Assembly: GCA_040437565.1 (NCBI GenBank)
Contig: JBDOQK010000001.1
Location: forward strand, 868,001-932,000
DNA length: 64,000 nucleotides
DNA from: Albugo candida
Taxonomy: Eukaryota
Direction: 5' to 3'
Shown here: positions 2,235 to 41,018 of the stretch, piece by piece
How positions within the stretch are numbered: the stretch's first letter is position 1
How the letters are laid out: each line of letters starts with the position of its first letter
The notes under the pieces: model-generated
What the model was told of the DNA's origin: nothing
Databases searched by the model: none
Seen by the model: only the letters and a program-made list of their open reading frames with translations
Program-made: the position numbers and the translations under genes

Positions 2235-2429
2235 AAGATATTGCAGAGCGTGTTTTGTCGCAGAGAAGTATCACCGTCCCCTCATTCTTTCTCAAATTTA
2301 ATGTTTGTCTCAAATGACTGCTTCCCACCAAGATCTTCGCGACAGTTGATACGTCTATAAGAAAATGTAATGAATGACTTGTGTCCAGTTATACTTTTGA
2401 GCGTTGAGGAACACAATCGAAATAACACG

Positions 2430-4118
2430 ATGGCCGCAACACGTAAAGCTCAAATTAACAACCTGCAAGAAAAGCTCGACAAGGGAGTCGAGTCCACAAA
2501 ATCGTATTTGGGTCACTTGAAAAAAAATGTATCCGATTACGACGCTCGTAATATGTTCACTGAAAAGGCTCAATCCGTCATTGAAAAGGGACTCGACGAG
2601 GCCGCAAAGTCGGTGGATCGTCTGAGAGATTCAGCAGAAGAGCTTCGAAAGCAGTCGGGAGATGCGTCAGATGAAACGATCAAGTCAGCACAAAAGTCAT
2701 TGGAGCATTTGAAACGCGCAATGGAGACTCTACGTGGAGGAGCGGAAGAGTATGATAAGAAAATAGGAGGTCAAAATCAACAAGCGATGGGTGAAGCCGC
2801 ACAGAACTCTTTAGCGAGTGTCGTCAACACGACAAGACAAGGTGCAATGGATGCTATCGATATGGCCAGCGAACAATTTTCACGCTTGTCCGAAATGCTG
2901 AAGAGCAGTACTGATTCTGTTCGCTACACCGCTGCGGTTGCTACTGGTGAGGCAGTGAAAGCTGCCGAAGTGGTAGATGACACGATTGGAGTTACTTCGA
3001 CAGCATCGGCTGTAGCAGGAAGAGTAACTGGTTTAGCACATCAAGTGGATGAGAAGCTGGGGGTAACAAGTAAGGCGTCGACAATTGATCAGAAGGTCAC
3101 AGGAGGAATGGCTTCCGGGTTGATCCAGAAGGGTGCTCAAATGGTGCAGGAAACGGTAGATTATGTGACTGAAACTCTTCAGCATGCGAAAATGGTAGCA
3201 GACTCTAGTGATACGGTGCAGATGGTGGAGGGTACAGTGAAAGACACCGCTGGGTCAGCCAAAGAAAAAGTACAAGGTACTATTGATTCAGCAAAAGATA
3301 CGGCTCAGCAAACGAAAGATAAAGCTGGCGAATTCGTTGCTCCTGCGGGTGAGATGGCCAGTTCTGCCAAAGACACCGTTCATGAAGCGGCTGGTAGTGC
3401 AAAAGATACGGCACAAAGCGCATCGAGTTCTGTCATGGAAAAGGGCAAAGATGCAGCAGGTATGGGTAAAGACATGGGCAACAATGCTAAAGACAAGGCT
3501 CAAAGTGCTGCTGGAGCAGCTAAAGACCAAGCTGAAGGCACTGCTCAGGCTGTAAAAGGCAAGGCGGAGGATATGGCTGGATCGGCTAAAGACAAGGCCC
3601 AAGATACTGCTGGTACTGCTAAGGGGCATACTCAGGGTACCGCCAGTGCTGCAAAAGACAAAGTGGAAGGTACAGCCGTAGCTGCGAAGGACAAGGCTCA
3701 AAGTACAGCTGGAGCTGCCAAAGAACAGGCCCTTGGTACTGCGAACTCTGCAAAGAGTAAAGTGCAAGAAACTGCTGGAGTCGCCAAAGAAAAAGCACAG
3801 GATGTTGCTGAGGCTGGCAAGAACGCTGCTCAGGGAACAGGGTCCGAAGAGGGTACAGGTATGGGAGAGAGCGTATCAAATTTAGTATCACAATTCGAAG
3901 AAAGAGTCAGTGAGGCGTCAATGAGTGCAAAAGAAGCTGTAATGGGCGCTGCGCCTGCAATGTCGGCAACTCAAAAGGTGGAGCAAAAAAATCAACTTGG
4001 CAAAGATGAAGGCGGAATGCTGGGCAAGGCAAGCGCTGCCGCGGAGAAGGTCAAAGACACCGCGGCTGATATGATGTCTACGCAAAAGAGTACGATGAAA
4101 CAAGCTACCAGGATGTAG
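2430..4118 (+). CDS. Group-3 LEA-like (late embryogenesis abundant) hydrophilic repeat protein
   Basis: Long intronless ORF rich in A/K/E/T/G and lacking W/C after Met2430. It has tandem 11-mer repeats such as TAGAAKDKAQS, TAQAVKGKAED and TAGVAKEKAQD. Confidence 0.8.
   Translation: MAATRKAQINNLQEKLDKGVESTKSYLGHLKKNVSDYDARNMFTEKAQSVIEKGLDEAAKSVDRLRDSAEELRKQSGDASDETIKSAQKSLEHLKRAMETLRGGAEEYDKKIGGQNQQAMGEAAQNSLASVVNTTRQGAMDAIDMASEQFSRLSEMLKSSTDSVRYTAAVATGEAVKAAEVVDDTIGVTSTASAVAGRVTGLAHQVDEKLGVTSKASTIDQKVTGGMASGLIQKGAQMVQETVDYVTETLQHAKMVADSSDTVQMVEGTVKDTAGSAKEKVQGTIDSAKDTAQQTKDKAGEFVAPAGEMASSAKDTVHEAAGSAKDTAQSASSSVMEKGKDAAGMGKDMGNNAKDKAQSAAGAAKDQAEGTAQAVKGKAEDMAGSAKDKAQDTAGTAKGHTQGTASAAKDKVEGTAVAAKDKAQSTAGAAKEQALGTANSAKSKVQETAGVAKEKAQDVAEAGKNAAQGTGSEEGTGMGESVSNLVSQFEERVSEASMSAKEAVMGAAPAMSATQKVEQKNQLGKDEGGMLGKASAAAEKVKDTAADMMSTQKSTMKQATRM
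3235..3835 (+). repeat. Degenerate 33-nt (11-aa) tandem coding repeat within the LEA-like gene
   Basis: Recurrent gctaaagacaaggc / gccaaagaa units with ~33-nt periodicity. Confidence 0.75.
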
Positions 4119-4315
4119 TGTTGATAGTTTTTTGCATTGTCTAAATGGACGTGTTAAGTTGTTTTTCTTTGAAGTAAAAGTTTAACATTTTGTGCACAAT
4201 TATTATCTCACACAAATTTTCTCATTGAAAGGATGGAACTGCGTTGTTAGTAATACTGTAACAAATTATATACTGCTCAAATCTTCAAACTTTAAACCAA
4301 GTAAGCAGGGAGAGA

Positions 4316-5015
4316 ATGGCGTCAATTGCCGCTTCGCCAGGTGCGTTCAATAAAGCTCTACTGAAGTATCGATTCTAAAATGTACATTTTAGTCTACTTA
4401 GAAGGACTGAAGAAACGTTGCTTCCCATCCGTCTCTGAAAGCTATGAAATGTCGTGCAAGAAACGATGTCGATCGATCGACTTTCGATCTGAAGCCGACG
4501 ACGATGGAAAAGGATGCGTAAAGTACACGCAGAGACAAGTCGATTATCTAGAACAAGTCAAACAGGCAGAGATATCCCGCTTACGGTCTTGTTGTACAAA
4601 TGTTAGGGTTTACATGCTGATATTTTGCATGAATTAGAACGGAATGTGAACAATTCATACTGAGAAAGGAAGCTGAATTACAGAAATTAAAACCAGAGGT
4701 ACTTCGTCCATGTCCAACCAACAGTTCATGTACTGATTTCTTGCGAAGATATCCAAATGGCGAGAGCATGCGCTGCAAATCGAAAAACGCTCGGAGCGAT
4801 ACCAACAAGAAAACAAGTTATTGAAGCGCGCAATCACGATACAGGCTCAGCAAAAAGAAGACTCTCAACGTGAGAATCAAGTGCTAAAGCAGTTGACAGC
4901 ACAAGCAGCAGAACATATCAAGCGACTAGAGCAATCGAATTATGCTCTACGTATCCATTTGGAAAAAAGTACTAGCGTCCAAATAACTCATAGGCGATTT
5001 CCTGATGTCTTTTGA
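4316..5015 (+). CDS. Coiled-coil protein resembling the C-terminus of the plant CUE-domain (ubiquitin system component Cue) family; about 3 introns
   Basis: Spliced product MASIAASP|EGLKKRC...|TECEQF...|ISKWRE...ENKLLKRAITIQ...LEQSNYALRIHL...RFPDVF*. The motifs 'EN..LKRA..IQ', 'LE..NYAL..HL' and terminal 'PDVF' match that family from memory. The exons join at GT-AG boundaries. Confidence 0.65.
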
Positions 5016-5069
5016 TTCGTGGCTGGCATTTCTTACGATTAATTGTATTCTTCCCGCTTTGCATTTCGA

Positions 5070-5539
5070 TTAAACTTGCGTGGTTGGTCTCTTCTCATTT
5101 TGTATTTCTTTGTTCTTTCCTTCGTCTGGACGAGGAATCGGTTTGATCTCGAAATCATTCATTGTCAGCTTCTTCGTTATTTTCTGAAACTAATTGCGTG
5201 AGCCAAACTAATTATATCTGTCGGTAGACTTACGCGGTATTCTTCTTCAAGGTCGAAAGCTCGAGTAGACTGACTCTTGATGTGTATATCTCTGGCTTCA
5301 AATTTCCCGCTTGCAAACTATCGGCAAAACTAGAATGAGATGGAGGACAGGAAGTAGCGATGATAGCTATTTGAGCTTTCCTGTGTCAAGCTTATATAAC
5401 CTCCCACGATAAATAGCAATAGTGGGAGTCCAACTTTTAAGAATGGGTTTTTTGATTTTTTGCGACGGAATCCGGAATAATGTGCGGTGCAAAAGCGCGC
5501 ATGACACGTGCTGATCGTTTTCCATGAGAATTGCCGCAT
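5070..5539 (-). CDS. COX16: Cytochrome c oxidase assembly protein COX16 (3 exons)
   Basis: The product reads KNPFLKVGLPLLLFIVGGYISLTQ|FASGKFEARD...FDLEEEYR|KITKKLTMNDFEIKPIPRP, which matches the COX16 pattern (PFL..GLP.....V.GS..L..F ... LEEEY ... PRP). Introns at 5318-5380 and 5184-5233. Confidence 0.85.
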
Positions 5540-5569
5540 TGTGACCTATTATGCGCACCTTAGGAGCTG

Positions 5570-5660
5570 ACCAATCATCATGCATCAGCGATGAAAACGA
5601 AGCCAATCAAGCCATAATAGCTCTTAATTCAGCCAATCGGCAAGATGATGCAGCCAACCA
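5570..5660. promoter_or_regulatory. CCAAT-box cluster in the divergent COX16/UTP10 intergenic region
   Basis: RRCCAATC at 5571, 5603 and 5633, plus GCCAAC near 5653. Confidence 0.5.
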
Positions 5661-6100
5661 ACATGCGGATCAGCTCCAGGCAGTACATTATTCTATTCAC
5701 CAGCGCATTGGGATCGTTGTTTGCGGGTTCTAGTTTTATGCATTTCTTTCTAAAACCTGACCTGGTATTCAAGACTTGTCGCTATTGTCATAATCATAAC
5801 TAATTTCTGTTTGTTTGCGACAGACAATCCCAAATCTTTCCAAAGAAAAACATGCTGATGAAAAACAGACTATAAGCTGATTATAATGTCAATAGAGGCG
5901 GCACAATTGTTTGCTTGTTTGTCCATTTCTCTCAATTTGATTACAAACCTAAGGTTAAGTTCGCACCGAAAAAACATGTATTTCTTTACTTCTTATCAAT
6001 CAACTGGTGGATGCGAGCGCAGCATACGAAGCGCTGCAGGCTTGAAAATCAACAAACCTTCAAATTAATCTCAAATTGACACATTCAAATTAAAAATCTC

Positions 6101-9100
6101 ATGACTTCTTCGCTCGCTCTTCAGCTGCAGAGCTTACGTGAAAAGGGTGCCGGCAGTAAACGGCGCATTGTTTCGTTTTTGTACGAGCACCGAGAAGCAG
6201 CTCAGCTGGATGATGAAATGATCTACAACATGGCATGTAATGGCCTAATTGAGCTACAAAAACTCGACGCTCGATTCGATACTTTCTTGGAAGACCCTTC
6301 GAAAACTCAGAAGAACACAAAATATAACGTCGCAGAATTATTTTCTAGACAAAGAGTCCACTTTCGTCGAGCACACCTTACTCGCGTGGAAGATAGTCAG
6401 TTAAGCGCGCAGCTTCGATTCGTCATTGACGCATTGAGCGGTTACTTTTTACTCAATGCGACACACAAAGTCCTCGAGTTCTTGATTCGACGATATGAGA
6501 TACATCGCTATAATGTAGATGACGTCATGACGATGATAATCTGCTACCACGAGTCTCCTTTTTTCGCTCGTATGTTTCGATTATTACACATTCGAGATAC
6601 GAGATGGGAATTCCTTCTTTCGGTGAAAACTCAGAAGCATTCATCTAATGGTGATCACGAAATTATGGTAGTGCGCGATGTTTTGGTCCAACGAGCTTTG
6701 GATGACACCTCTTTTATTGAGTTCATCTTTGATGCCATCTATCCCTGCGCGAAAGATTCTGTGAAGCATGACGATAACAACCTGAACTCTTATTTCGGCA
6801 CGTCACTTCCTAGCAATCACTCGAAATTGATCAGCTTGTACACTGCTATGGTGCTAGGAGTTGTTCAACGATCGCAAATAATTAGCGAAACACTCCTTCG
6901 AAAAATTCTACCGCAACTTTTACGAACATGCGCTGCAGTACAATGCCCGGATCTACAAATTTCAGGATACATGATCTTGACAAAACTGTCTTCTCGAGCG
7001 ACTTTCGCAGCTTCGACATTATCGGCTTTGGTTAAACAAATTGTGAAGCATATTCCAAGAACCGCCTCGAATCACCATACTGTTCTATTCAGTGGATCTG
7101 GTTCGAGTTCATATCATGCAATACTATGCTTGACGCATCTATCTCAAACTCAGCCATTACTAGTACTAGACAGAAGGGTAGCAAAGTATTTTGCTCAGAT
7201 ACCTGATCTTGGTTCGATTCTGCGTAGTGCTGCCGATAATTACGACATTTCAAACCTGGCTCGGAGCATACTGTATGAGTTTTTAACTAATGTCACTGGT
7301 TGCTCGATCGAGGAGAAGGGTGGAAAACGAGACTTATATTTTGATAGCGCACAGTGTTTGATCGAAGTGCTGCCAAAATCGACCATGTCACCGATTATAG
7401 ACGATTTGGTTCAGAAGCTTTTCAGTGAAGCCGAACTAGCCAATTATGATTTGTCTGATGGCAAAGTTGCATCGATATCGCGACTCTGTCAAGTTTTGAG
7501 CCGGAAGTATATGGAAGAGGCTGAAAAGGGCGTACAAATCTTGCTTCACAATAACGTCAAACTTGAGGAATCTCAGACGTCACATTCGAAAGGAAATAGT
7601 AGATTGTACGGTCAACGGGATAAGTTCCTGTCAGCGACATTCACTAAAGTTCCCAACTCAGCTCGATTCCTCCCTTTTTCAATCGATACTCATGAAACAG
7701 CAGAAGTACAAATCACTTCATTAGCACTTGCATTGGATCATCCGTCTGGAAATACTCGTCTGCAAGCGATCAAAACTCTGGAGAGCGCAGTTGTCGAAAA
7801 GGATCAAGTAGAGTTCTCAGCTATTCTCGACAATGGAGACATTCTCTTGCGTCGGTTGCAGGACGATTCTCTGGATATTGTACACTCACTAATATCTTCA
7901 AAGATTCTTTCAGGCCTTCTACTTCGTACATGCGCACCAAAATCTGTTTGTCAAGCACTTTCACCAACACTCAAGCGCTTTTTGAGCTCTGAGTTCGCAA
8001 TGAAGTCTTGTCAACATCATCATGAGGAACGTTCAACTAACAAGAACCCTGTTGATTACCTGAACGTGGCAAATGCATTATTGGGATTTCTTGTTCAAGA
8101 ATTTGCACCTCACACTGGACACCGTTTTGATGATCACATTCTCCAATATTTGCTTTGCTTAATTGCGAACACTCACTACAAGAACCTTTGCTTAATGGCC
8201 GATGGTGAAAGCCAAAACTTTCGTGACAATTCATCGCAAAGCTTTGTGAACAAAATAATAGACTTTACAAGCCAACTTGAGCACCCATTCAGCTCTGCAC
8301 TGAAAGTATGGCTAAATGAAGGCGGTTCTCGTTCGCAGAACTGGAGTCAATTCATTCAAGTATTGAGTAAAGCTTTAGCCGAAAACGTAGATCAACTTCT
8401 ACCTTGCTGTCTTTCCTGGGCACACTCAGAAGCCAGTCAAGACGATTTAGGACTTGGTTCTCATGAGGCATTGTCTCCAATGCTTCTCATTGAAACATTG
8501 GAATGTTCACGCCGTCAAGACATATTAAGTGGAGCTGACAAGGTGGTACTAGATCGAGCATTCCAAGACGTGCTTTACAAGGAATATATTCATATTTGCA
8601 CCACAAAACAAGATAAGAAAGACAATGGATCTCTGTTGTCGATTGTGAAGTTTATCTGCAATTTCGCGATCGATCATTCCGGTGTGTATTCAAAAATGGC
8701 TAAGAATCGTTTCGAAAGCTGCTTGATGATTTTATTATCGGCCCCAGCGACTATCTTTTCCGTGATAGAAACCCAACTTTACAGCTTTCTCAAGCAGTAC
8801 AAGGCATCAGAAGCAGCTCCAATATCTTCCATACCACGCATCAGCTTCAAGTCAAGCATTCTTATGTCTTCAATTCGTGAAATAGGTATCGAGCTAGACG
8901 AAGAAGATGAGCGTATTCTTGTATCCGTTGTTACGAAGCGCTGTATCGATATCGTTCGAAATGCTTTTGAACACGCAGATACTGTGAAGAGTTTCTCGTT
9001 ATTGGAGAGCACAAATGCGCTACCGGTTGCATTGGTCGCGCTAGTGGACGAACAAGGTGGCGTTCGGCAATCCGCAATTTCTTGCCTGGAGCAGTGGATG

Positions 9101-26367: not shown

Positions 26368-28501
26368 CTATTGTTTGTTCTCATTCATTTGCATGGAAAT
26401 TTCTTGGACGGCTTTCACGAACGTGTCAAGATGCGACGGTGCCATATCTGGAAAACATCCATGACCCAGGTTGGCTACGTAACGCTGAGTGCCAAATGCT
26501 TCCAACATCTCTCGAACCTAAAAAGAATGCGTCGATCAGTATCCCAGCTAAAAGCGAATAGCGGATCAACTCACGTTGCTTTGAATCGTTTCAGGTGATG
26601 CATATATGGCACAGGGATCCAAGTTGCCTTGTAGGGATACTTTTCCATCCACAATGTCGCGCACCTGACATATGTCCGATTGCCAGTCCACTTGCAAGCA
26701 GTCGTACTTGGTCGTAGCTAATGCCTTATAGGCGTACGGGGTTCCTTTGGAGAAACAAACAACAGGGACGTTTTCACCGCACGCATCCTTCACTCTTGCA
26801 GCAATTTGTTCCAAGTATGGAAATGCAAACTCGAAATAATGTTCTTGGGTCACACTTTCCGCAGCGACACTTTCAAAAACTTGTAATACTTGTGCTCCTG
26901 CTCTCTGCTGTGCAACCAGGAAACGAACGCATATGTCTGTGATCGCGTACAAAATGGTGTGTGCTTCTGTAGGATGCTACAAGTGACTCTCAGTTGAGTG
27001 TGTAGAATAGAGAATGAATCCAAACCTCGTACAAAAATGTCTTAAAAAGACTTTTTGTGCGGCTTCCTCGTCCCTCGATCATATAGCACAAGAGAGTCAA
27101 TGGACCACCGCAAAAGCCGATTAGAGGAACTCTGCCATTGATTTCTTTTCTTGCCAGATTTATAGCGTCCAAAACGTATCCGAGTGTCTGTTCAACGTCG
27201 GGTGTCAAATTTATTTCTTCAACATCTTTAAGCTCGCGGATAGGCTTGGAAAAGACAGGTCCTACGGACGGAACCATTGAAATCTGCATTCCCATCGCCA
27301 TTGGAATCACCAAAATATCCGAAAATATGATTACTGCGTCGACACCATATCTTCTGAAGGGTTGTAAACTCACTTCGACTGCTAGNNNNNNNNNNNNNNN
27401 NNNNNNNNNNNNNNNNNNNNNNNNNNNNNNNNNNNNNNNNNNNNNNNNNNNNNNNNNNNNNNNNNNNNNNNNNNNNNNNNNNNNNGTGTAGAATAGAGAA
27501 TGAATCCAAACCTCGTACAAAAATGTCTTAAAAAGACTTTTTGTGCGGCTTCCTCGTCCCTCGATCATATAGCACAAGAGAGTCAATGGACCACCGCAAA
27601 AGCCGATTAGAGGAACTCTGCCATTGATTTCTTTTCTTGCCAGATTTATAGCGTCCAAAACGTATCCGAGTGTCTGTTCAACGTCGGGTGTCAAATTTAT
27701 TTCTTCAACATCTTTAAGCTCGCGGATAGGCTTGGAAAAGACAGGTCCTACGGACGGAACCATTGAAATCTGCATTCCCATCGCCATTGGAATCACCAAA
27801 ATATCCGAAAATATGATTACTGCGTCGACACCATATCTTCTGAAGGGTTGTAAACTCACTTCGACTGCTAGTTCGGGGACACTGCACATCTAGATAAAAC
27901 AGATTTAAAGTGATACAATTTCTTATGCTTTGCATGTTACCGTGAAGAAATCGTAACCAGCCTCACGCAATNNNNNNNNNNNNNNNNNNNNNNNNNNNNN
28001 NNNNNNNNNNNNNNNNNNNNNNNNNNNNNNNNNNNNNNNNNNNNNNNNNNNNNNNNNNNNNNNNNNNNNNNCGAAAATATGATTACTGCGTCGACACCAT
28101 ATCTTCTGAAGGGTTGTAAACTCACTTCGACTGCTAGTTCGGGGACACTGCACATCTAGATACAAACAGATTTAAAGTGATACAATTTCTTATGCTTTGC
28201 ATGTTACCGTGAAGAAATCGTAACCAGCCTCACGCAATGACCGAAACTCGGGCAAATGGCGCCCAGCTTGCCGCATGCACCAGACAGGAACGCGCTCTGT
28301 TGGTTTCCCAAGTAGGGCTCGGACAACTAGATCGTTTTTCAGTGGTGGAAGCTCATGCACACGTCGGCGTTGAACTCGTCTGAATGGGAAGGGATGTGAT
28401 TTTTTTCTTTTTTCACGACGAGATAGAAGCACCGCGACAGCAGATGCGATCGCAACAGCAATAGTCACTGTGGATGCAAGGGATGACGATGGTGCAGGCA
28501 T
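26368..28501 (-). CDS. UROD: Uroporphyrinogen decarboxylase (multi-exon; two gap-duplicated segments)
   Basis: Motifs '[15 protein letters not shown]', '[10 protein letters not shown]', '[17 protein letters not shown]', 'QVFES', 'LQGNLDP' and 'ANLGHG'. Confidence 0.96.
27386..27485. other. 100-N gap; 27000-27385 duplicated at 27486-27871
   Basis: Direct identity. Confidence 0.95.
27972..28071. other. 100-N gap; 27806-27971 duplicated from 28072 (1-nt intronic indel)
   Basis: tagataaaac versus tagatacaaac. Confidence 0.95.
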
Positions 28502-29194: not shown

Positions 29195-32100
29195 ATGACC
29201 AAAGCACGTGTGGCTGTCCCCTCTCCACCAATGACCATCTCATTCCACAGTTTCGAGCAAAGGTGGTATCTCATAGTGCTTGGAGCAATAGCCTGTGGGA
29301 TCGCTTATCATTGGGCAACCTTCCAACCAATTGATTCGAAATATGACAACATCGGGAATGTCTCAGACAAAGGCTACTTGTCATACGGACCCATTGATGC
29401 TGTATACACTTGGGTCAACGGAACTGATTTACGCTGGAAAGCTGAAAAGGATTTCTGGCAACGGCAATGGTTAACAGCTTTGACTGGGCAAGCTGCCTCA
29501 GAAAGTGTCCAAGAAAGTAAGGATAAATCCGCCTCGGATAATCGTTTCCGCGACAACGAAGAGCTCCGATTTTCACTTCGATCACTTGAAAAGTATGCCC
29601 CATGGATCCGTCACATTTACATCGTGACGGATGGACAGATTCCTTCATGGCTGAATCTTGACTCACCGCGTATTTCAATCGTACCACATCGAGACATATT
29701 TCCAAATACCTCATATCTTCCAGTATTCGCATCACCAGCAATCGAGTCAAACTTGGTCAATATTCCGGATTTGAGCGAGCACTTTCTCTACTTTAACGAT
29801 GACGTCTTCCTGGGGTCACATATAACGCCTAGCGATTTCATCAGTGTAGACGGTGTTCAGAAAATTTATTTTGCTTGGGAAATTCCGCATTGCTCTGCTT
29901 TATGCGACAACGAAAATCTTGGGAACGGAATTTGCGATTTTGGGTGCAATACTACCTCCTGTGACTATGATCTTGGAGATTGTGGATGCATAGTAAACTC
30001 TGAGACGGACAATTTACACTGCGATGAGGAAAAAGTTAAGGATGTTCTTCTAGCAAAGATTTTAAAGGAAAACCAGGCGACGCTTTTAAAGAGCGATAGT
30101 TGTCGCGAATTCTGTACTTATGAAGCACTGGGTGATGGAAAGTGCGAATCTACTTGTGATACTCCAGAGTGTGGATTTGACGGAGGCGATTGTAATATGT
30201 CTCACGTTCATAGTAGTTTACCAACGGCCAGCATTTTCACGAAGAATCTCATGTACATTGAGGACGGATCGTCCAGGTTGTTCTGGATTGCTGAAGTATT
30301 TCAGGACGTCCCGGCCATGATTTTTAATCTATCTTCCGTATTTGGCGTAAATGGCTCCATTTATACTGCGGAACATGACAATCCGATGCTCGTTCGGCAG
30401 GCTATCGTTCATGAAGACCAGATGATTCTACTTGTGGTATTTGGTAGAGAAGATTATAGTAATGAAGGTCGTACAGGAAGCTGTACTCTGGAAATCAGAG
30501 GTCGCACTGTCGGAGGTGAAGAACAAATAATTCAGATTTTCTTAATGCGAGGGAACACAACTATCAACTCGATCGGAATACAACAGCATGAACATGACGA
30601 CTCGACTTCTCCCACGAACGAAAATATCGCTGTCGCTGGGCTATATACCTTTCTAAATCAAACTTTGACTTCCGAATATATCACATCACCCATCGACGTT
30701 CATGCCAGCAAAATATATGTGTCTGGATCGATGAGAATAGAAAGAAAGCCAGCACCTATAGACCTCGAGGCCGGCAAGCATTCTTCCGAAATCGAAACTC
30801 AATACGCAGTCGACAACAGCGATCAGAAGAAAGCACTGATATTCAATCTCTATCTACCTCGCGTCCATACCGAAGTGGGTCGAAAACTTGGCCGCGATAC
30901 TCAGTTACAATTCGAAGTCACATTACGCGATCGAGCAATCGAGCATGAACGTGCACAATCCGAAGTTCTGCTTAATTTTAGAAGAGTTTTCACGTGTATG
31001 CTGCACTCCTCCTTTGTCGCCACCGCCACATTGGAGAAGCCCGCGGAGTTTGAAGCAAAAGCATCTGAGCCCTTGGATAAAGCGACCTCTTTCAACGANN
31101 NNNNNNNNNNNNNNNNNNNNNNNNNNNNNNNNNNNNNNNNNNNNNNNNNNNNNNNNNNNNNNNNNNNNNNNNNNNNNNNNNNNNNNNNNNNNNNNNNNTA
31201 GAAACGAGTGTATTTGAGCTCACTTTCGTGCGCATTCTATAGAACTAGACCGAAGTTCTGCTTAATTTTAGAAGAGTTTTCACGTGTATGCTGCACTCCT
31301 CCTTTGTCGCCACCGCCACATCGGAGAAGCCCGCGGAGTTTGAAGCAAAAGCATCTGAGCCCTTGGATAAAGCGACCTCTTTCAACGACGATAGCCCACA
31401 ATGTGTCAACATGCATGATCAGGGTCTGTCAGTACAAATCAAAATTACTTTGCCGCAGCCAGCTGGTCATCTAAGGTACAATGTGGGAAAGAAGGCGGAA
31501 GAGCATGAAATGGGATCTAAGCTTGATTATGAGGCAGAGAGGCATGATCACCAGCAACCCGAGCATGATACTTTCCCTCGTGTGGAACCTCGACTCTTTG
31601 ATGGTCAACTCTGTTTTCTTGACGTTGCACGGCCACAAGAGAAATTCTGCTTCAGTATTGCTCTTACGTATTATGATCGACATAATGTCGCTTTGACTGT
31701 CACGACAGCGAAAGATGATATGGCGAGAAATGATGCTAAAGATACCAATGAAAATGAGCCTTACTACATGGAGAAGGATGCGCAATCCGCATATCAAGAT
31801 GGTACTCTCACGCTCGATGAAGCCCCTGTCGAAGAGCCTGTAGATGACTCGACCGCGCCCAACGACGAAATATCTGATCGAGAGAAGGAAGAGGGTCGCC
31901 TTGTGTGTGCGTTGAAAAGGAATCGACTAGAAAGATACAAAATGGAAATTGAATGGGAAACAAAAATGCGGCAGCAGAGCTCGCACTCAGAAAGCGCTGA
32001 CTTGATGACTGGAATCATTAAGTGGCTACAAGGTTTTCTATCGGATACAACTTTAGTCGAAAAATCTCCAGAGTCAGACCTTGAGCATGAGTATGCACGC

Positions 32101-33267
32101 GAGTGCGCCACAACGGACGACGACTTGAAGGACTTATTCGTTACCCCCTCTCTGCATTCGTTTACGTCCCAGGAGAGAGAAGCCGCCAGGGCGTCCACCG
32201 ACACATTTGGTGATTCATTACGCTTTGTCAATAAATTGTTTACTCGTGCTTTTGGAAAGCCTTCCGAAAGACGTCGAGTAGTTTCGCACATGCCATTTTT
32301 GATCAAAAAGAGCACAATGCTTGAACTCAAGTCACATTGGCCGCAAGAGTTCGAGGCCACGTCCTCTCACCGCTTTCGTCATCCTCATGATATGCAGTTC
32401 AGCTTTTCATACTTTCATTATCTGATCAATCGCCACAAGCTGCACCCACCAACAATTGAGGAAATCTGGGCTGAATATTTCGATGTGAATCGAAATGGAG
32501 TATTGGATTATCTGGAAATGTTAACACTTGCAAGTATGGTTCATGGTGATACTCCTTCCGAGACTTCGATCGAGGAAGTAAATAATTGTATACAACCACC
32601 ACGTGCAGTGACAGAGATCGAAAAGGATACTAAAGAAGGACGATTAAAAGTGTCCGAAACGTTGCATCCTCACATCACACTCGAGTCTTTGAAGAAATGT
32701 AAGGAAGTGGCCGAGAAACTGATCAGCAACGTTCGTCGAAAGATAATGTACGAGCCGATGTCTGAAGCAGAAGTCACTTTCCACATGCTGAGCGATAATC
32801 CCACATATGCTCTCGGTCAAATGCTCAACACTAGAGCAAGGCGGACGAAATTCGTGTGCATCAATGATGACATGAAAAATCCCACACAAAAAGTACATCA
32901 GGTACTTCGTGAGCTCTTTCTCGCATTCTGGCCGAATCAATCGCAGTTTGAGCTGCCGCATCATCTCCAAAATCGGTACTTGCACATCGATGAGTACAAT
33001 CTCGCTCAACAACGATTGCGAAAGCTTTACCTGGGATTGATTCTGACCGTGGTCATATTGGGCCTGTCCGTTTATTGGCACAAGTCCATGTGGATCTTTC
33101 GAAAGAGGCAAGCTTCTCGGCCTCGTACATCCTCAGCGTCCATTCTAAAACGGGAACGGATCAAGGCCGACAGAAACGTGATACTCAAGAGCCCGACTTC
33201 GGCATCAAGTCCTAGGTCCTCGCCAAAGGTGGACTGTGAGGTCGTTGGTAACAAGATGAAACAATAG
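29195..33267 (+). CDS. GNPTAB: UDP-GlcNAc:lysosomal-enzyme N-acetylglucosamine-1-phosphotransferase alpha/beta precursor-like (Stealth family)
   Basis: N-terminal TM; Stealth CR1 'PIDAVYTWVNGTD'; CR2 'ELRFSLRSLEKYAPWIRHIYIVT' and 'FLYFNDD'; two LNR/Notch-like Cys repeats; CR3 'DTFGDSL...SHMP'; EF-hand 'DVNRNGVLD'; CR4 'KFVCINDD'; C-terminal TM. Split by the gap at 31099-31198. Confidence 0.9.
31099..31198. other. 100-N gap; 30960-31098 duplicated from 31250, after ~51 nt of unrelated sequence
   Basis: Identity except ttggag/tcggag. Positions 31199-31249 do not match the first copy. Confidence 0.9.
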
Positions 33268-35251: not shown

Positions 35252-35559
35252 GATACTGAACGCAAAGTATCTTGAGGATCCGGAAAATTTGTGTGGATTA
35301 ATTAGGAAAAAGAGAATAAAACCCTCATACTATATTTCGAATTTTTTCATGGTGCATTGAACGGTACGATTGTAGCATGATTCTCGCTGCCAGATGGCCA
35401 AGCGAACGCATTTCACATTCGAAGAGCATGAACGCCTGTATCAATACATTTCGGAACTGTACAGCTTCTCGATGATTGCCATTATTGCTCAATGTCTCAA
35501 CTTCTTTTCATTCATTATTGGAGGCTATCATTCGCACCTTTAAATCTTATTGAATTTTG

Positions 35560-36390
35560 ATGGACTATCGCTCAGATACGGAAGGCTGCGTTTTGTTCCT
35601 GAAAGAATATGACGAGAAGTATTCGAAAGCTCTCTTACAATCGCAAACTAAAGTACCTCTACTAAGAAAACTTAATGCGTGCTTTGCTCAAGTTCTAACC
35701 TTTGAGTATGTGAATCGTCTCCAGCTTCGCGACACTTTACTGCACCTCCAAGGTCGACATGCCGGCATAATAATCACTAGCCCCCGAGCCGGTATCGCGA
35801 TTATAGAGGCAATCAAAGATCTTCCTGAAGGATCCCGTAGCGACATTATTCGACAACTGAGAGAGACAACAATTTTTTCTGTTGGTGCAGCCACGTCCAG
35901 TAATTTGCACCAATTTGGTATTTCCTGCAATGGCGAACATAGTGGATCTGCAGATGGGCTGGCTGACTATATATTTGAGAATGGAATACTTCCCCCTTGT
36001 TCTGCAAAAAAACCAGTGCTATTTCTTTGCGGAGATAAAAGACGGGATTCTATTCCATCGGCATTTCGACAACGAGATTTGCCGCTTGTCGAGCTAAAGG
36101 TCTATGAAAGCTGTCCTCTCAAGGAAATCAAGATGCCTGACGGATTGGAAGTACCAGCATGGATTGCTTTTTTCAGTCCGAGTGGCTTGAAAGCCGTACA
36201 GAATCTTCCTCTCCCATGGCCTCACATCAGAAAGGCTGCTATTGGAAAAACAACTGCAAGCGCATTACAGAAGCTTGCCGATTCTACTGGAATGATGCAT
36301 TGGAATCCACATGTTACTGCCACGTCACCTAATTCAGATGCACTTGCACGAGCGATTGTTGAATATGAACATAATAACTCAGTCTCGTGA
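35560..36390 (+). CDS. UROS: Uroporphyrinogen-III synthase (HemD/HEM4)
   Basis: Motifs 'GIIITSPRA', 'FSVGAAT', 'GEHSGSADGLA', 'VLFLCGDKRRD', 'LKVYE', 'IAFFSPSG' and 'AAIGKTTA'. Confidence 0.93.
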   Translation: MDYRSDTEGCVLFLKEYDEKYSKALLQSQTKVPLLRKLNACFAQVLTFEYVNRLQLRDTLLHLQGRHAGIIITSPRAGIAIIEAIKDLPEGSRSDIIRQLRETTIFSVGAATSSNLHQFGISCNGEHSGSADGLADYIFENGILPPCSAKKPVLFLCGDKRRDSIPSAFRQRDLPLVELKVYESCPLKEIKMPDGLEVPAWIAFFSPSGLKAVQNLPLPWPHIRKAAIGKTTASALQKLADSTGMMHWNPHVTATSPNSDALARAIVEYEHNNSVS

Positions 36391-36929
36391 ATGTCACAGA
36401 TTGTCCACGTTGGCACAGAGCTACTTTTCTGCTCTGAATTGGGAGCAGCTGTTATAGCTGAATAAGTGAAACAAATCGAGGCAAAGTAAGCTGAAGAATA
36501 CGTTACGTCCCATTATAACGTTTGATCCCCGACAAGCCAAATATTTGTTCCGTCCGTCCATTTTCAAGAATTGAACGCATGTTGCGAAGCTTTGTCACAG
36601 CAAACAGCGATGACACTTCCCTTTTGATCAAATATTACAAGTCCATGTACCCGTACCTTCTAGTAACCTTCCACAATAGATGCTCTTATAATTAGAAAAT
36701 AACTCGTACAATATAATAATTCGAAGAACGTCTTTCTCGGATTTCACGCCTCTTCTTTGCTCTATTGCCAGGAGGTCGACCAGAACCACACACCCACCAA
36801 TTACCCGGCAAAAGTCGTCGTGTATCCACCATAAATTATTCGTATACACCGCGTCAATCAATACTTATGACGCCAAATCTTGCGTAAGCTCACTCTACAA
36901 TCTGAAAAGCTTTTATTGTATCTGATTGC

Positions 36930-39167
36930 ATGGTTTTCCGTAACTTGTATCGCAGAGACTCGAATAAGAATTCAATGGGTACAACGCTTTCTGAGTGCAC
37001 ATGGCAAAAAAGCAATCAATTACCCCATCAGATGAAAGGGATCGATGATCAACGGCGGAATCGGAATCAGGATTCAGAGTGGCAGCAATCGGCAAAGCCT
37101 TCCAAAACAGCTGATTCTCCTTCCATGACGAAACTGGTGCGTAAGATGTCGCTACATTTTTGCAATTATAAAAAGAATGAACTGCACGCGAAAATACTGC
37201 GAGTAACAATGGCAGATCGGATGTGTGATCGAGCATGTGGAAGTATTCGAATTAGCTCGCCGGCGCTGGAATCTCGTGCGCGCAAAGAATCACGAGACAT
37301 GTTGCAAGATTCTTTGGCAAGACATAGTGCCAAGGATGACTCTGAAATAATGTCTTGCTCCAAGTCTTTTCATGCGTTCCGTCAAGGCGCTCCTTGGACT
37401 TTTAAAGATACGATCAATATCGGGGAATCTGACGAAATCCACTCTTTCATCATGTTCCGAGTTCTGGATCCAACTTCTTATTTCTATCGATTTCGAATAG
37501 ATGATAAGCAACATCTAAAGCCGCAGAAACTGACTGTGCATCTAGTCGACATTGAGTGGCTAAAACCACATGAGCAAATTGTCAGCTTGGAGCGGGTGAA
37601 TGGACTGAAGCAAGCAATTTTGGCGTGGAACGCCTTCACAGAGCCGCTTCTAATTGATTTGAAAACCGGATCAATACTCGACGGACACCACCGCTACACG
37701 GTGGCAATGCAGCTGAGACTCAAGCAAATACCTGCGGTTCTGATTGATTACTTGGATGACGCAGGTGTAACCGTGGATGTATGGGCAGAATGTGGACGTG
37801 AAAATCTGACGAAATATGAAGTGATTGAAATGGCGTTAAGTACTCAACTGTTTCCCGCAAAAACAAGTCGACATCGATTTGTGAAGGCACTTCCTCCTAT
37901 CTCCGTTCCCCTCTCCGTCTTGAAGACACCACCACGTGTAAATATCAACTTGCTACCCAATCTTGGTGACCACGATGTATTGAACAGTCTCAATTTTGAA
38001 AGAACGGAAGAAAGAATCGATGTTGTCCAGCATATAGGTTCTCAAGAACTGAGGAGGTGTCAAAAAAGTCTACGGGACTTTTCGATGGGTTTTTTTTGTG
38101 GTGCTCAAAGTCTTGCTGCTAAACTGAACCGGACGAATCGTATTCGCAGAATTGAGAATAATGATAGGCGTTATCAAGCACGTGAAACATTCCTTGATAT
38201 AGTCAAGCGTCCTACTTTACATCATTCTGCTTCTACCTCTTTTTTCGACGTGATTCGTGTCAACGACCCATCCTCATCCTTCTGCCGACAAAAGACTCAA
38301 ACATTGGATGACTTTCTATGTAGCGATGCNNNNNNNNNNNNNNNNNNNNNNNNNNNNNNNNNNNNNNNNNNNNNNNNNNNNNNNNNNNNNNNNNNNNNNN
38401 NNNNNNNNNNNNNNNNNNNNNNNNNNNNNACGAATCGTATTCGCAGAATTGAGAATAATGATAGGCGTTATCAAGCACGTGAAACATTCCTTGATATAGT
38501 CAAGCGTCCTACTTTACATCATTCTGCTTCTACCTCTTTTTTCGACGTGATTCGTGTCAACGACCCATCCTCATCCTTCTGCCGACAAAAGACTCAAACA
38601 TTGGATGACTTTCTATGTAGCGATGCTGCCAAAGGTATAACGTTTTATGGGATCCGAGTGTGTGATCCAACCTCATATTTCTACAAATTTCGCTTGAATG
38701 CATGCCCACGACGAAGTCCGCAACGAGCACTCATTGTATTAGCTGATATCAAGTGGTTAAAACCTCACGAACATGTTGTCAGCTGGGATCGTGTTGAGGG
38801 ATTACGGAAAGCTACATTGCGATGGAACGCTTACATGGAACCTCTTCTTGTAGATTCGAAGACGGGAGCAATACTTGACGGTCATCATCGCTATCATGTT
38901 GGTCTTCGAATACATCTCCGTACAGTACCGGTCGTATTAGTCGATTATTTGGAAGATGAATCGATTACGGTGGACGTCTGGCCGAATTGTGGCCGTGATA
39001 GCTTAACGAAAGAAGAAGTCATTCGAATGTCACTATCGGAGGATGTATTCCCACCCAAAACGAGTCGACATAAGTTTTCGGATGATTTACCACCCATTTC
39101 TGTCCTATTGGATCGCTTGCGGCAACCACTGCATGAAAATCAGGTGGTAAGTTGCCTCAATCAATGA
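36930..39167 (+). CDS. Protein with two tandem ParB/sulfiredoxin-fold domains
   Basis: Two copies of 'DI.WLKPHE..V...EPLL.D.KTG.ILDGHHRY...P.VL.DY...TVDVW..CGR..LTK.EVI.M.LS...FP.KTSRH.F'. The ORF is intronless and about 646 aa after removing the gap and duplicated segment. Confidence 0.85.
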   Translation: MVFRNLYRRDSNKNSMGTTLSECTWQKSNQLPHQMKGIDDQRRNRNQDSEWQQSAKPSKTADSPSMTKLVRKMSLHFCNYKKNELHAKILRVTMADRMCDRACGSIRISSPALESRARKESRDMLQDSLARHSAKDDSEIMSCSKSFHAFRQGAPWTFKDTINIGESDEIHSFIMFRVLDPTSYFYRFRIDDKQHLKPQKLTVHLVDIEWLKPHEQIVSLERVNGLKQAILAWNAFTEPLLIDLKTGSILDGHHRYTVAMQLRLKQIPAVLIDYLDDAGVTVDVWAECGRENLTKYEVIEMALSTQLFPAKTSRHRFVKALPPISVPLSVLKTPPRVNINLLPNLGDHDVLNSLNFERTEERIDVVQHIGSQELRRCQKSLRDFSMGFFCGAQSLAAKLNRTNRIRRIENNDRRYQARETFLDIVKRPTLHHSASTSFFDVIRVNDPSSSFCRQKTQTLDDFLCSDXXXXXXXXXXXXXXXXXXXXXXXXXXXXXXXXXXTNRIRRIENNDRRYQARETFLDIVKRPTLHHSASTSFFDVIRVNDPSSSFCRQKTQTLDDFLCSDAAKGITFYGIRVCDPTSYFYKFRLNACPRRSPQRALIVLADIKWLKPHEHVVSWDRVEGLRKATLRWNAYMEPLLVDSKTGAILDGHHRYHVGLRIHLRTVPVVLVDYLEDESITVDVWPNCGRDSLTKEEVIRMSLSEDVFPPKTSRHKFSDDLPPISVLLDRLRQPLHENQVVSCLNQ
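38330..38429. other. 100-N gap; 38133-38329 duplicated at 38430-38626
   Basis: Direct identity. Confidence 0.95.
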
Positions 39168-41018
39168 TAGAGAGTTTTGTTGCGCTTCTCGAGAGAAATA
39201 TACCATTTTTTGTTCGATTATGCCTTCATCGTCCCTTTGATCTATTTCGATGTGATCGGATGATGCAGCTGCCTGTGATTTTGAGAGAGGAAATGCCAAA
39301 TTAAAGAAAGATGGTACAGCGACCAATCTAATCGTAACTGCCCCATGCCCTTACTGAATCGATTTTGGATTATATCTTCAGCGTTTCGACATGAAGATTC
39401 GTTTTCACCTCAACCCTTCTAAAGCTCAATGTCGATATGTAACGTCAAGCCTTCTCGTTGATGCTAGAGTATCGTACTGGATTCTTGACTGCCACATTGT
39501 ATATTTCCACAAATGCTTGGGTCTGTTAGTTCTGAAACCCTGATAAAAATCTGATCGCCGAAGTGTTCAAATATTTCTACTGGAATTGGAACGGCTTACA
39601 ATTTTACTATGACGACTCGTGAAGGCCCATGGTACCATGAATTGCGTACATAGGGCGTCGATACTTCTATGCTACAAGAAGGCGATTATAATCTTATGAC
39701 TTTCTGGTCTATAGAGTGTGATTGTTGAGCATAACATACCACATCTGTTCTCACACAATGCCTCATCGCCAACTTACATATCACTAAATGTCTACAAACA
39801 GGGTCGCCATTACCAAGATCGAAAATCAACTAGTAAAGTTGCGACCCCTTTGAATAGCGTATCTGAACACTCAATACATTGCATTCTGGAGGATAGATCA
39901 TCGCCAGATTGAAAAAAAATCAAGCAAAACGCATTTGAGTGAGCTAACCAGTGCATAAATCGGTGCCTAACTTGATGCACAACAAAGAGCCATTCAAATT
40001 GGAATGGAGTAGCATCTACTTGATACTATTAAAGTATTTCTTGCATGATTGACATCCACTTTATCAACAAATATCGTGTTCGTCTTCTTATTCCACTTCA
40101 CGCCGAATCATCAAATTTTTTACTGGTAATACGACGTCATACACCTGCCTTGCTGTTAGTAATTTATTTAAGCACGGCTTACACATTAGATTCCAGTTTC
40201 AGCGATTTCTTTCTCTCGGTTCAATACTTCGCTCTTTGGAAGATAGAAGCTGCTGTACCAATGACTTACTTCCAAGAAAACTCTAATTTAAATGGTGTTA
40301 ACTTTCTTCCTTTGTGCTGGCGCTACTCTAATCTACATTTTCGCCACCTTTTGCGCATACTCCTGGTAGCCGACCATTCCAGTGAAAATTCTAGCAGCAC
40401 ATTTTTGCCATCTGTTCTCAGTACAAAATCTGGAATACAAACCGTTGCCATGACTTCCCTTTTCTCATCTGAGTTGATTTTCCTAGGCTATTCCACAATA
40501 AAGTATTGACCAAATAGCTTAAAATGGAGAAGCGTGAACATCCGCTTAACAGTTTTATCCCTCATTTTGACAACATGTGACAAACTGTCAATTATTCTAT
40601 GAGCAATTAGATGCTCACATGTGTCTCAGCTTACCCGAATTCAGTGCATCAACTTTCCGTGCTCGCTGCTGCTTCGGGACTGGTAGATCGACTACGATGC
40701 TCAGCAACCTGCTTTCCAGTGGTATCGAGCAATTCCATTGAACGTATATATTCAGAGGTAGATATCAAGTACTTCAAAAGCAAGTGTGGGTATGAAATCC
40801 TTTCACCGAGATGAAGCCGATTCATAACGAAAGGATTATTGATAAAACATGCACTCCACATGATGTATCTTTCCAAACACCGTATCTTGCCGGATATATC
40901 GACTCAAACACCTCCCCATGACAGATGTACAACGCAAAACCATATATAAAATCAGTGTGGGTGTGGATGTGACTTTTGATACTCATCGACGCATTTGCAA
41001 GGCCCGGTCTTAATGGAC

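Follow-up and report, generated by a model that had tools for sequence, protein, structure and literature searches.

Minimal SerK-like domains in tandem in an oomycete protein with relatives in marine group II archaea and diatoms

What is a protein with two tandem domains of a prokaryotic nucleotide-binding type doing in a eukaryote, directly downstream of a gene of haem biosynthesis? This question is raised by an open reading frame of Albugo candida, which occupies positions 36930..39167 (+) of a 64,000-nucleotide stretch (assembly GCA_040437565.1, contig JBDOQK010000001.1, positions 868,001 to 932,000 of the forward strand; this whole stretch is called the window, and all positions given below refer to it). 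A first-pass annotation, made from the sequence alone, had described the frame as an intronless gene for a duplicated and probably horizontally acquired small-molecule kinase or NTPase, with a possible link to haem or to serine and cysteine. We found by profile comparison and structure prediction that each of the two domains (about 135 amino acids) has the ParB/Srx fold, and that their nearest solved relative is the archaeal serine kinase SerK, followed by SbnI. Judged from the sequence searches, marine group II archaea, diatoms and oomycetes share this family.

Fold and family of the two domains

Self-alignment of the translated frame revealed two internal units, which are identical at 93 of 163 residues (57%, gapless, E 1e-68), the first unit comprising residues 172-334. 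The five motifs quoted in the first-pass annotation (LKPHE, EPLL.D, ILDGHHRY, P.VL.DY and FP.KTSRH) were all found in both units, so that its description of two closely related domains was correct. The units and three of their motifs are located as follows:

37443..37931 (+): domain 1, a mini-SerK unit with the upstream F..R..DPTSYFY.F segment (self-alignment; SerK model E 1e-12)
37560-37574, 37680-37694 and 37860-37874 (+): LKPHE, DGHHR and KTSRH of domain 1
38640..39128 (+): domain 2, a mini-SerK unit (self-alignment; SerK model E 1.4e-10; fold matches)
38757-38771, 38877-38891 and 39057-39071 (+): LKPHE, DGHHR and KTSRH of domain 2

When the domains were compared with family models, Pfam yielded only sub-threshold matches to ParB_N (13.8 and 12.1 bits; threshold 26.3). 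The best NCBIfam model for both domains was that of archaeal SerK (NF053625, an equivalog model), with the E-values listed above. The SbnI model (NF033589) reached 13.4 bits with domain 1 (cut-off 350) and had no match in domain 2, and the ParB partition model (TIGR00180) reached 16.2 bits (cut-off 58.45). For comparison with solved structures, we used a profile of 58 family members. Here, SerK (5x0b) was the best solved relative (E 2.4e-26), followed by the Pyrococcus protein 1vk1 (E 8.8e-25) and SbnI (E 5e-12 to 3e-10), while ParB and Noc (E about 2e-3) and sulfiredoxin (E 0.95) followed at a distance. The alignment with SerK consists of two stretches, in which profile positions 5-105 lie on SerK residues 14-115 and positions 96-136 on residues 201-241 (E 5e-6 for the second stretch). 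Because the match is split in this way, the family corresponds to SerK without residues ~116-200. We call this arrangement, which by alignment comprises the N-domain of SerK and the C-terminal PKT(S/T)RH segment and lacks the SerK_C insert, mini-SerK. Relatives with an insert at the same profile position exist, and two of them match the Pfam SerK_C family (PF18231).

Structure prediction led to the same neighbours. The AlphaFold (AF2) model of domain 2, calculated on the family alignment, had a mean predicted local distance difference test score (pLDDT) of 86.6, with most core blocks at 92-98. In a Foldseek search with this model, 1vk1 and the SerK entries (5x0*) ranked first (E 2.3e-9 to 8.7e-9, TMq 0.66-0.68), followed by SbnI (~1e-6), Noc/ParB (~1e-3) and Srx (~1e-2), and all top matches have the ParB/Srx fold. 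Thus, the fold and the closeness to SerK and SbnI that the first-pass annotation had proposed were recovered by the profile and also by the structure search it had suggested. The AF2 model of a full-length database protein (P0002), calculated on a 12-row alignment, had a pLDDT of only 35.7.

The residues expected at the active sites are conserved. Across the 58 family sequences L40, H43, E44, G81, H83 and Y103 are invariant, and D80, H82, K140 and H144 are conserved in at least 90%. The invariant glutamate of the KPHE motif aligns with SerK residue 30, where the crystal entries E30A and E30Q carry their substitutions. When 12 full-length oomycete orthologues were aligned, KPHE (or KAHE), DGHHR and PKTSRH were kept in both domains of all 12 proteins, and so were H43, E44, D80, G81, H82, H83, K140 and H144; the F..R..DPTSYFY segment precedes each domain. 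Both sites therefore look intact by sequence, as had been stated before. A motif of the FGGCHR type is absent from the reading frame, both domains having LDGHHRY at that place, and together with the poor profile match to Srx this upholds the earlier exclusion of a sulfiredoxin. The predicted complex of domain 1 (residues 168-340) with domain 2 (residues 470-649) of P0002, calculated on the oomycete alignment, scored 0.00 and 0.00, and this result counts neither for nor against pairing of the domains.

Gene structure, distribution and history

The frame at 36930..39167 runs from ATG to stop in the standard code and has 745 codons, 34 of which are read as X. The latter originate from a block of 100 N at 38330-38429, and the frame stays open only when this block is read through. 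The 197 bp before the block (38133-38329) are an exact copy of the 197 bp behind it (38430-38626), and all 65 residues encoded by the two copies are identical. For comparison, Logan contigs of four public runs (X1, X2, X11, X17) were placed on positions 35500-39400. Since the contigs of X1, X2 and X11 join 38132 directly to 38430, skipping 297 bases (one repeat copy and the N block), the gap and one copy of the 197-bp repeat are scaffolding artefacts that do not belong to the gene. At the X1 joint, the 197 letters fit on either side, and the X1 sequence equals that of the window once the artefact is collapsed. X2 and X11 have nine extra letters at the joint, and these correspond to three extra residues of P0002.

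In addition, the X11 contig lacks positions 36884-36955 (72 bp with GT..AG borders, starting with GTAAGC and ending with TCGCAG), whereas X1 and X2 have DNA-type contigs that continue through this stretch without a break. Since one run is spliced at a place where the DNA-type runs are unspliced, this segment is a 5' intron, and since X11, which is tentatively labelled RNA, holds the spliced form, it contains transcripts. X17, for which RNA was only guessed, contributed six short pieces of low depth over the region. It follows from these contigs that the gene of Albugo candida is real and transcribed. The ATG at 36930, from which the first-pass annotation had started, lies within the intron. 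Exon 1, as far as covered, contains a single ATG, at 36867. Splicing brings it into frame with the rest, and the protein translated from it has 643 amino acids; the covered piece has no in-frame stop upstream of this ATG. An NCBI model from another assembly (P0001) begins at the next ATG, 36975. With artefact and intron removed, the real product has about 643-649 amino acids. The corrected gene model, in which the artefact is taken out and the intron put in, is as follows, and it replaces the intronless frame proposed before:

36718..36883 (+): exon 1 as far as covered, with 5' leader and ATG at 36867 (X11 spliced contig)
36884..36955 (+): intron of 72 bp, GT..AG, containing the ATG at 36930 (skipped only in X11)
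36956..38132 (+): exon 2, first part, with N-terminal region, domain 1 and linker (frame and contigs)
38133..38429 (no strand): assembly artefact, made up of a second copy (197 bp) of 38430-38626 and the 100-N block (skipped in X1, X2 and X11)
38430..39167 (+): exon 2, second part, with the end of the linker, domain 2 and stop codon (frame and contigs)

The length of the linker (window 38133-38626) differs among sources of Albugo candida. P0001 has a tandem repeat of 47 residues, and P0002, X2 and X11 have three additional residues (nine letters).

Database searches with the protein gave an Albugo candida protein as best match, which is 100% identical over the searched region. Among proteins of 409-1304 residues, 54 of 381 candidates matched at E <=1e-3, and all named ones were from oomycetes (Albugo, Phytophthora, Nothophytophthora, Peronospora, Bremia, Plasmopara, Hyaloperonospora, Peronosclerospora, Pythium, Globisporangium, Lagenidium, Aphanomyces, Achlya, Thraustotheca and Saprolegnia). 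According to these matches, the two-domain form is present in all oomycete lineages sampled. In the size range of 96-307 residues there were 480 candidates, and 406 of these passed E 1e-5. Proteins of 134-141 residues from Thalassarchaeaceae, Poseidoniales and records named 'Euryarchaeota archaeon' are 56-66% identical to the Albugo domain, and the named single-domain proteins of 250-320 residues are from diatoms (Amphora, Chaetoceros, Eucampia). A search of representative clusters gave 1098 clusters at E <=1e-3, 58 of them at <=1e-30. Apart from one bee record, there were no named animal, plant or fungal proteins among the matches listed in these length-limited searches. The bee record (P0145) is an insert-carrying SerK-like protein filed under Hylaeus volcanicus and may be a contamination or a symbiont or parasite sequence.

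Genome contigs were scanned with the 13 closer rows of the family alignment, and 417 relatives were found in 465 matched stretches; the best 80 loci all had archaeal titles and were 55-66% identical. In Poseidoniales (marine group II), 292 of the 301 genomes searched had a match, compared with 39 of 91 genomes in a sample of the whole phylum Thermoplasmatota, where a second tier of about 135-150 bits occurs in larger genomes. A metagenome scan returned 229 relatives, the best 80 of which are single-domain marine contigs, with no two-domain oomycete locus among these. The extra matches in the ESM Atlas were archaeal clusters of the ParB_N type only.

The diatom forms carry about 100-200 extra N-terminal residues. 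We inspected 89 single-domain proteins whose sequence begins with M and whose domain is preceded by 100 or more residues (including P0249, P0320, P0318 and P0206). A strongly hydrophobic 12-mer lies near the start of 61 of them, and in 50 of 89 this stretch has an 'AF' no more than 24 residues behind it; in 200 shuffles the mean was 11.8 and the maximum 20. We take this combination to be the pattern of diatom plastid-targeting presequences, and it suggests that the diatom forms are mostly targeted to the plastid. No plastid-type start was seen in the 12 aligned oomycete orthologues.

The history of the family was studied with two trees. In a quick tree of 144 domain rows, the domain 1 and domain 2 rows of oomycetes, the diatom-type rows and those of marine group II formed one short-branched group with 86 in the Shimodaira-Hasegawa-like approximate likelihood ratio test (SH-aLRT), and the two oomycete domains were sisters (88). 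A bootstrapped tree of 82 rows, to which other Thermoplasmatota were added and for which no root was inferred, recovered marine group II together with the eukaryote-type rows (bootstrap/SH-aLRT 100/96), the eukaryote-type rows except for one stray (P0107; 86/79), marine group II (81/43), oomycete domain 2 (99/98) and oomycete domain 1 (74/28). Sisterhood of domains 1 and 2 was not recovered here, but the approximately unbiased (AU) test does not reject it (p 0.395). Since each domain clade holds Saprolegniales-type species as well as Peronosporales, Pythium and Albugo, the duplication took place before the sampled oomycetes diverged from one another. The internal duplication proposed by the first-pass annotation is thus real and old.

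The proposed horizontal acquisition fared less uniformly. The prokaryotic kinship stands, with marine group II proteins being 55-66% identical, but the family is not specific for oomycetes. As diatoms also carry it, any transfer predates the oomycetes or lies outside them. We tentatively lean towards a transfer from an archaeon to a stramenopile, because the eukaryote-type group lies beside or within the archaeal diversity and because the gene is so widespread in Poseidoniales; the tree is unrooted, and the reverse direction is possible.

Possible function and its alternatives

The reading that we favour, although its probability stays somewhat short of even, is that mini-SerK is a nucleotide-dependent small-molecule phosphotransferase of the SerK type, which would have two working sites in the oomycete protein and L-serine as leading candidate substrate. 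Each domain would bind a nucleotide at DGHHR, the glutamate of KPHE would act as base, and a phosphoryl group would be passed to the hydroxyl of a small metabolite, so that each protein would have two active sites, one per domain. The leading candidate reaction would be conversion of L-serine to O-phosphoserine, an alternative candidate substrate being a sugar that is later given a nucleotide, and ATP, ADP or CTP may serve as phosphate donor. We infer catalysis, substrate and donor from the kinship to SerK, the conserved residues and the surroundings of the archaeal genes.

These surroundings lend mild support to a small-molecule chemistry and specifically to serine or phosphoserine. A GalU-like sugar-1-phosphate nucleotidyltransferase is fused to mini-SerK in 3 of 24 proteins scanned (P0112, P0119 and P0179; one cluster is named from Poseidoniales), where P0112 and P0119 score 135 and 123 bits with the galU model, under its cut-off. 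A hexapeptide-repeat domain, for which gamma carbonic anhydrase or PaaY-like are the best names (under cut-off), is fused to it in 3 of 19 other Thermoplasmatota loci, and an NAD_binding_1 domain is present in one representative. For marine group II, neighbours were counted in 42 loci with full flanks. In 18 of them, a phosphoserine-phosphatase-like hydrolase lies within 6 kb (130 bits; cut-off 152), and in 35 gcvH was found just past a gene for a CCA-adding-like enzyme. The four loci without this CCA-type neighbour (L017, L045, L047 and L048; positions ~2300-6400) have a co-oriented series of serC, a middle gene (deoC in L017, L047 and L048, i.e. three of the four), an unknown gene of ~513 amino acids and mini-SerK; serC, three genes upstream of mini-SerK, is well supported (434 bits; cut-off 253). 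In other Thermoplasmatota, one fusion gene is immediately followed by gcvT, and an insert-carrying SerK-like gene (L188:4909-5952, -) ends exactly at the start of the gene for seryl-tRNA synthetase (L188:3536-4909, -). As a separate observation, a PhoU-like gene follows mini-SerK in all four serC loci, and a PHO4 phosphate-transporter gene comes next in L017, the only locus annotated there.

Several findings weigh against a kinase of this kind. Both domains miss the SerK family cut-off of 380 bits widely (47.7 and 40.8 bits) and match model positions 12-100 of 244 only. The profile alignment skips SerK residues 116-200, i.e. the SerK_C insert of ~85 residues, and neither domain matched the Pfam SerK_C family at E up to 1; for the insert-less group as a whole, kinase activity is a prediction only. 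The gene context is mixed. The commonest neighbour in marine group II, divergently paired with mini-SerK in 38 of the 42 loci, is a PolyA_pol-head gene, and some other Thermoplasmatota loci adjoin RadA and ribonucleotide reductase or Cbf5/TruB and cytidylate kinase. The serine-linked neighbours were noticed after the fact and represent few independent arrangements. Finally, most oomycete orthologues have an RRRKR stretch near the N-terminus, which could be a nuclear signal. The best name for the PolyA_pol-head neighbour is CCA tRNA nucleotidyltransferase (230 bits; cut-off 290), and it appears to be a bacterial-type, CCA-adding-like enzyme. Its pairing with mini-SerK is kept in spite of at least three kinds of flank rearrangement (for instance L003:4592-5911, -, with L003:5974-6390, +).

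The RRRKR stretch would fit a rather different role, in which the protein is a nucleotide-dependent switch or regulator that binds CTP or ATP in the way of ParB-type clamps and has DNA or chromatin in the nucleus as its target. ParB and Noc have the same fold, a published screen found CTP binding by a SerK-like protein of archaea (PMC12704722), some database names read 'transcriptional regulator', and mini-SerK lies near RadA in 3 of the 19 other Thermoplasmatota loci, two of which also have ribonucleotide reductase nearby. Nevertheless, we consider such a switch rather doubtful. Pfam found no helix-turn-helix or dimerisation domain, the ParB partition model stayed at 16.2 bits against a cut-off of 58.45, and the profile E-values of ParB and Noc were some twenty orders of magnitude above that of SerK. 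Moreover, the conserved glutamate of KPHE and the K..RH segment are features of SerK, and the diatom forms have presequences of the plastid type.

Another alternative keeps a chemical reaction and changes its target to a macromolecule, such that a side chain of a protein or the end of an RNA would be phosphorylated or otherwise modified, as sulfiredoxin acts on protein. Without the SerK_C insert, the minimal domain is comparable to Srx, and two features of gene context speak for this alternative, namely the divergent pair with the CCA-adding-type enzyme in marine group II (38 of 42 loci) and the position downstream of Cbf5/TruB in two loci. The very high identity between archaea and eukaryotes (55-66%) would also suit a conserved macromolecular partner. 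However, a gene pairing seen within a single archaeal order carries little weight as evidence, the catalytic cysteine motif of Srx is absent, and the fusion partners are metabolic enzymes. We judge a macromolecular target to be unlikely.

The neighbourhood in the window itself had led the first-pass annotation to a haem link. Two genes of the haem pathway are concerned:

35560..36390 (+): UROS, uroporphyrinogen-III synthase (Pfam HEM4, E 1.5e-25), 540 bp upstream of the mini-SerK frame
26990..27889 (-): URO-D reading frame, UROD

The co-orientation with UROS at a distance of about 540 bp is correct, and UROD is about 9 kb away. A role in tetrapyrrole metabolism or a haem-dependent regulation like that of SbnI, which we take to bind haem, would agree with this position and with the plastid-like presequences of the diatom forms, as diatoms make tetrapyrroles in the plastid. 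On the other side, the SbnI model gave 13.4 bits against a cut-off of 350, and the resemblance to SbnI is limited to the common N-domain. The annotated neighbours of the relatives (4 loci of marine group II, 19 of other Thermoplasmatota) included no haem gene, and the suggested haem link goes back to the adjacency to UROS in a single genome. In X11, UROS and the mini-SerK gene are on different contigs, the UROS contig ending at 36717, which does not indicate a joint transcript of the two, and gene order in eukaryotes rarely tracks function. Taken together, the position beside UROS is most likely incidental, and we regard a haem-linked role as highly improbable. UROD and UROS, which catalyse consecutive steps of the pathway, are themselves about 7.7 kb apart on opposite strands, with Stealth-family and signal-peptide-peptidase genes between them. 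The Stealth regions CR1, CR2 and LNR lie in the frame 29195-31201 (+) and CR3 and CR4 in 31288-33267 (+), and these frames probably belong to a single gene that is interrupted by an intron or a frame break.

A ParB-like nuclease, as once reported for the Pyrococcus SerK homologue whose structure (1vk1) is the closest fold match, hardly comes into question, since the paper that mentions this earlier report (PMC5120207) reassigns the SerK homologue group as serine kinases and Pfam finds no DNA-related domain.

Returning to the SerK-type phosphotransferase, its most specific version combines several suggestions: a minimal kinase of stramenopiles for free serine or a related hydroxy-metabolite, which goes back to an ancient inter-domain transfer with marine group II archaea, is plastid-targeted in diatoms and has two sites in oomycetes. 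That all these parts hold together seems to us improbable. If the kinase prediction is right, free-serine kinase chemistry would extend to eukaryotes, and a function would be at hand for a gene found in 292 of 301 marine group II genomes; these organisms rank with the most abundant archaea in surface seawater. There would also be a clear case of gene sharing between archaea and stramenopiles at about 60% identity, and if both transfer and kinase function apply, these eukaryotes would have a so far undescribed route to O-phosphoserine. For oomycete biology, the protein is a candidate enzyme that is conserved throughout the lineage, with no plant homologues among the matches listed.

Comparison with known systems

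Our full-text literature searches found no description of the insert-less group or of the oomycete tandem form, and in the main text of the oomycete gene-transfer papers examined the words 'ParB' and 'sulfiredoxin' do not occur. A survey of the ParB-CTPase fold from 2025 (PMC12704722) mentions archaeal proteins that consist of a single, very short domain, and among eukaryotes it gives Srx as the main representative; in its text, datasets aside, 'oomycete', 'diatom', 'stramenopil' and 'tandem' do not occur. A further SbnI-like group, DUF1015 or 'SerBK', has been proposed to consist of serine kinases (PMC13759103). It is a different and much larger family, which had no match in any search made here.

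Among the better known members of the fold, the CTP-dependent DNA clamps ParB and Noc have the same N-terminal fold, but their helix-turn-helix and dimerisation domains were not found by Pfam in the Albugo protein. Srx, the usual eukaryotic ParB/Srx protein, is likewise a minimal single-domain form that uses a nucleotide, but its catalytic FGGCHR cysteine motif is absent in Albugo. SbnI, a staphylococcal free serine kinase and haem-responsive regulator (PDB 5UJD, 5UJE, 6NR6), has the common N-terminal ParB/Srx domain with the same two motifs. Here, only the first ~80 residues align, and the C-terminal domain of SbnI is absent in the Albugo protein. The closest system is archaeal SerK (Thermococcus kodakarensis TK0378; PDB 5X0B and related entries, with Pyrococcus 1VK1), an ADP-dependent kinase of free L-serine. 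SerK has the ~85-residue SerK_C, whereas the Albugo domains are without it, stand in tandem in a eukaryote and have a kinase role by prediction only. What they have in common with SerK is the ParB/Srx N-domain, the KPHE glutamate at the position of Glu30, DGHHR and the C-terminal PKT(S/T)RH strand-helix, and if the predicted activity applies, mini-SerK would be a third, minimal form of the SerK/SbnI kinases.

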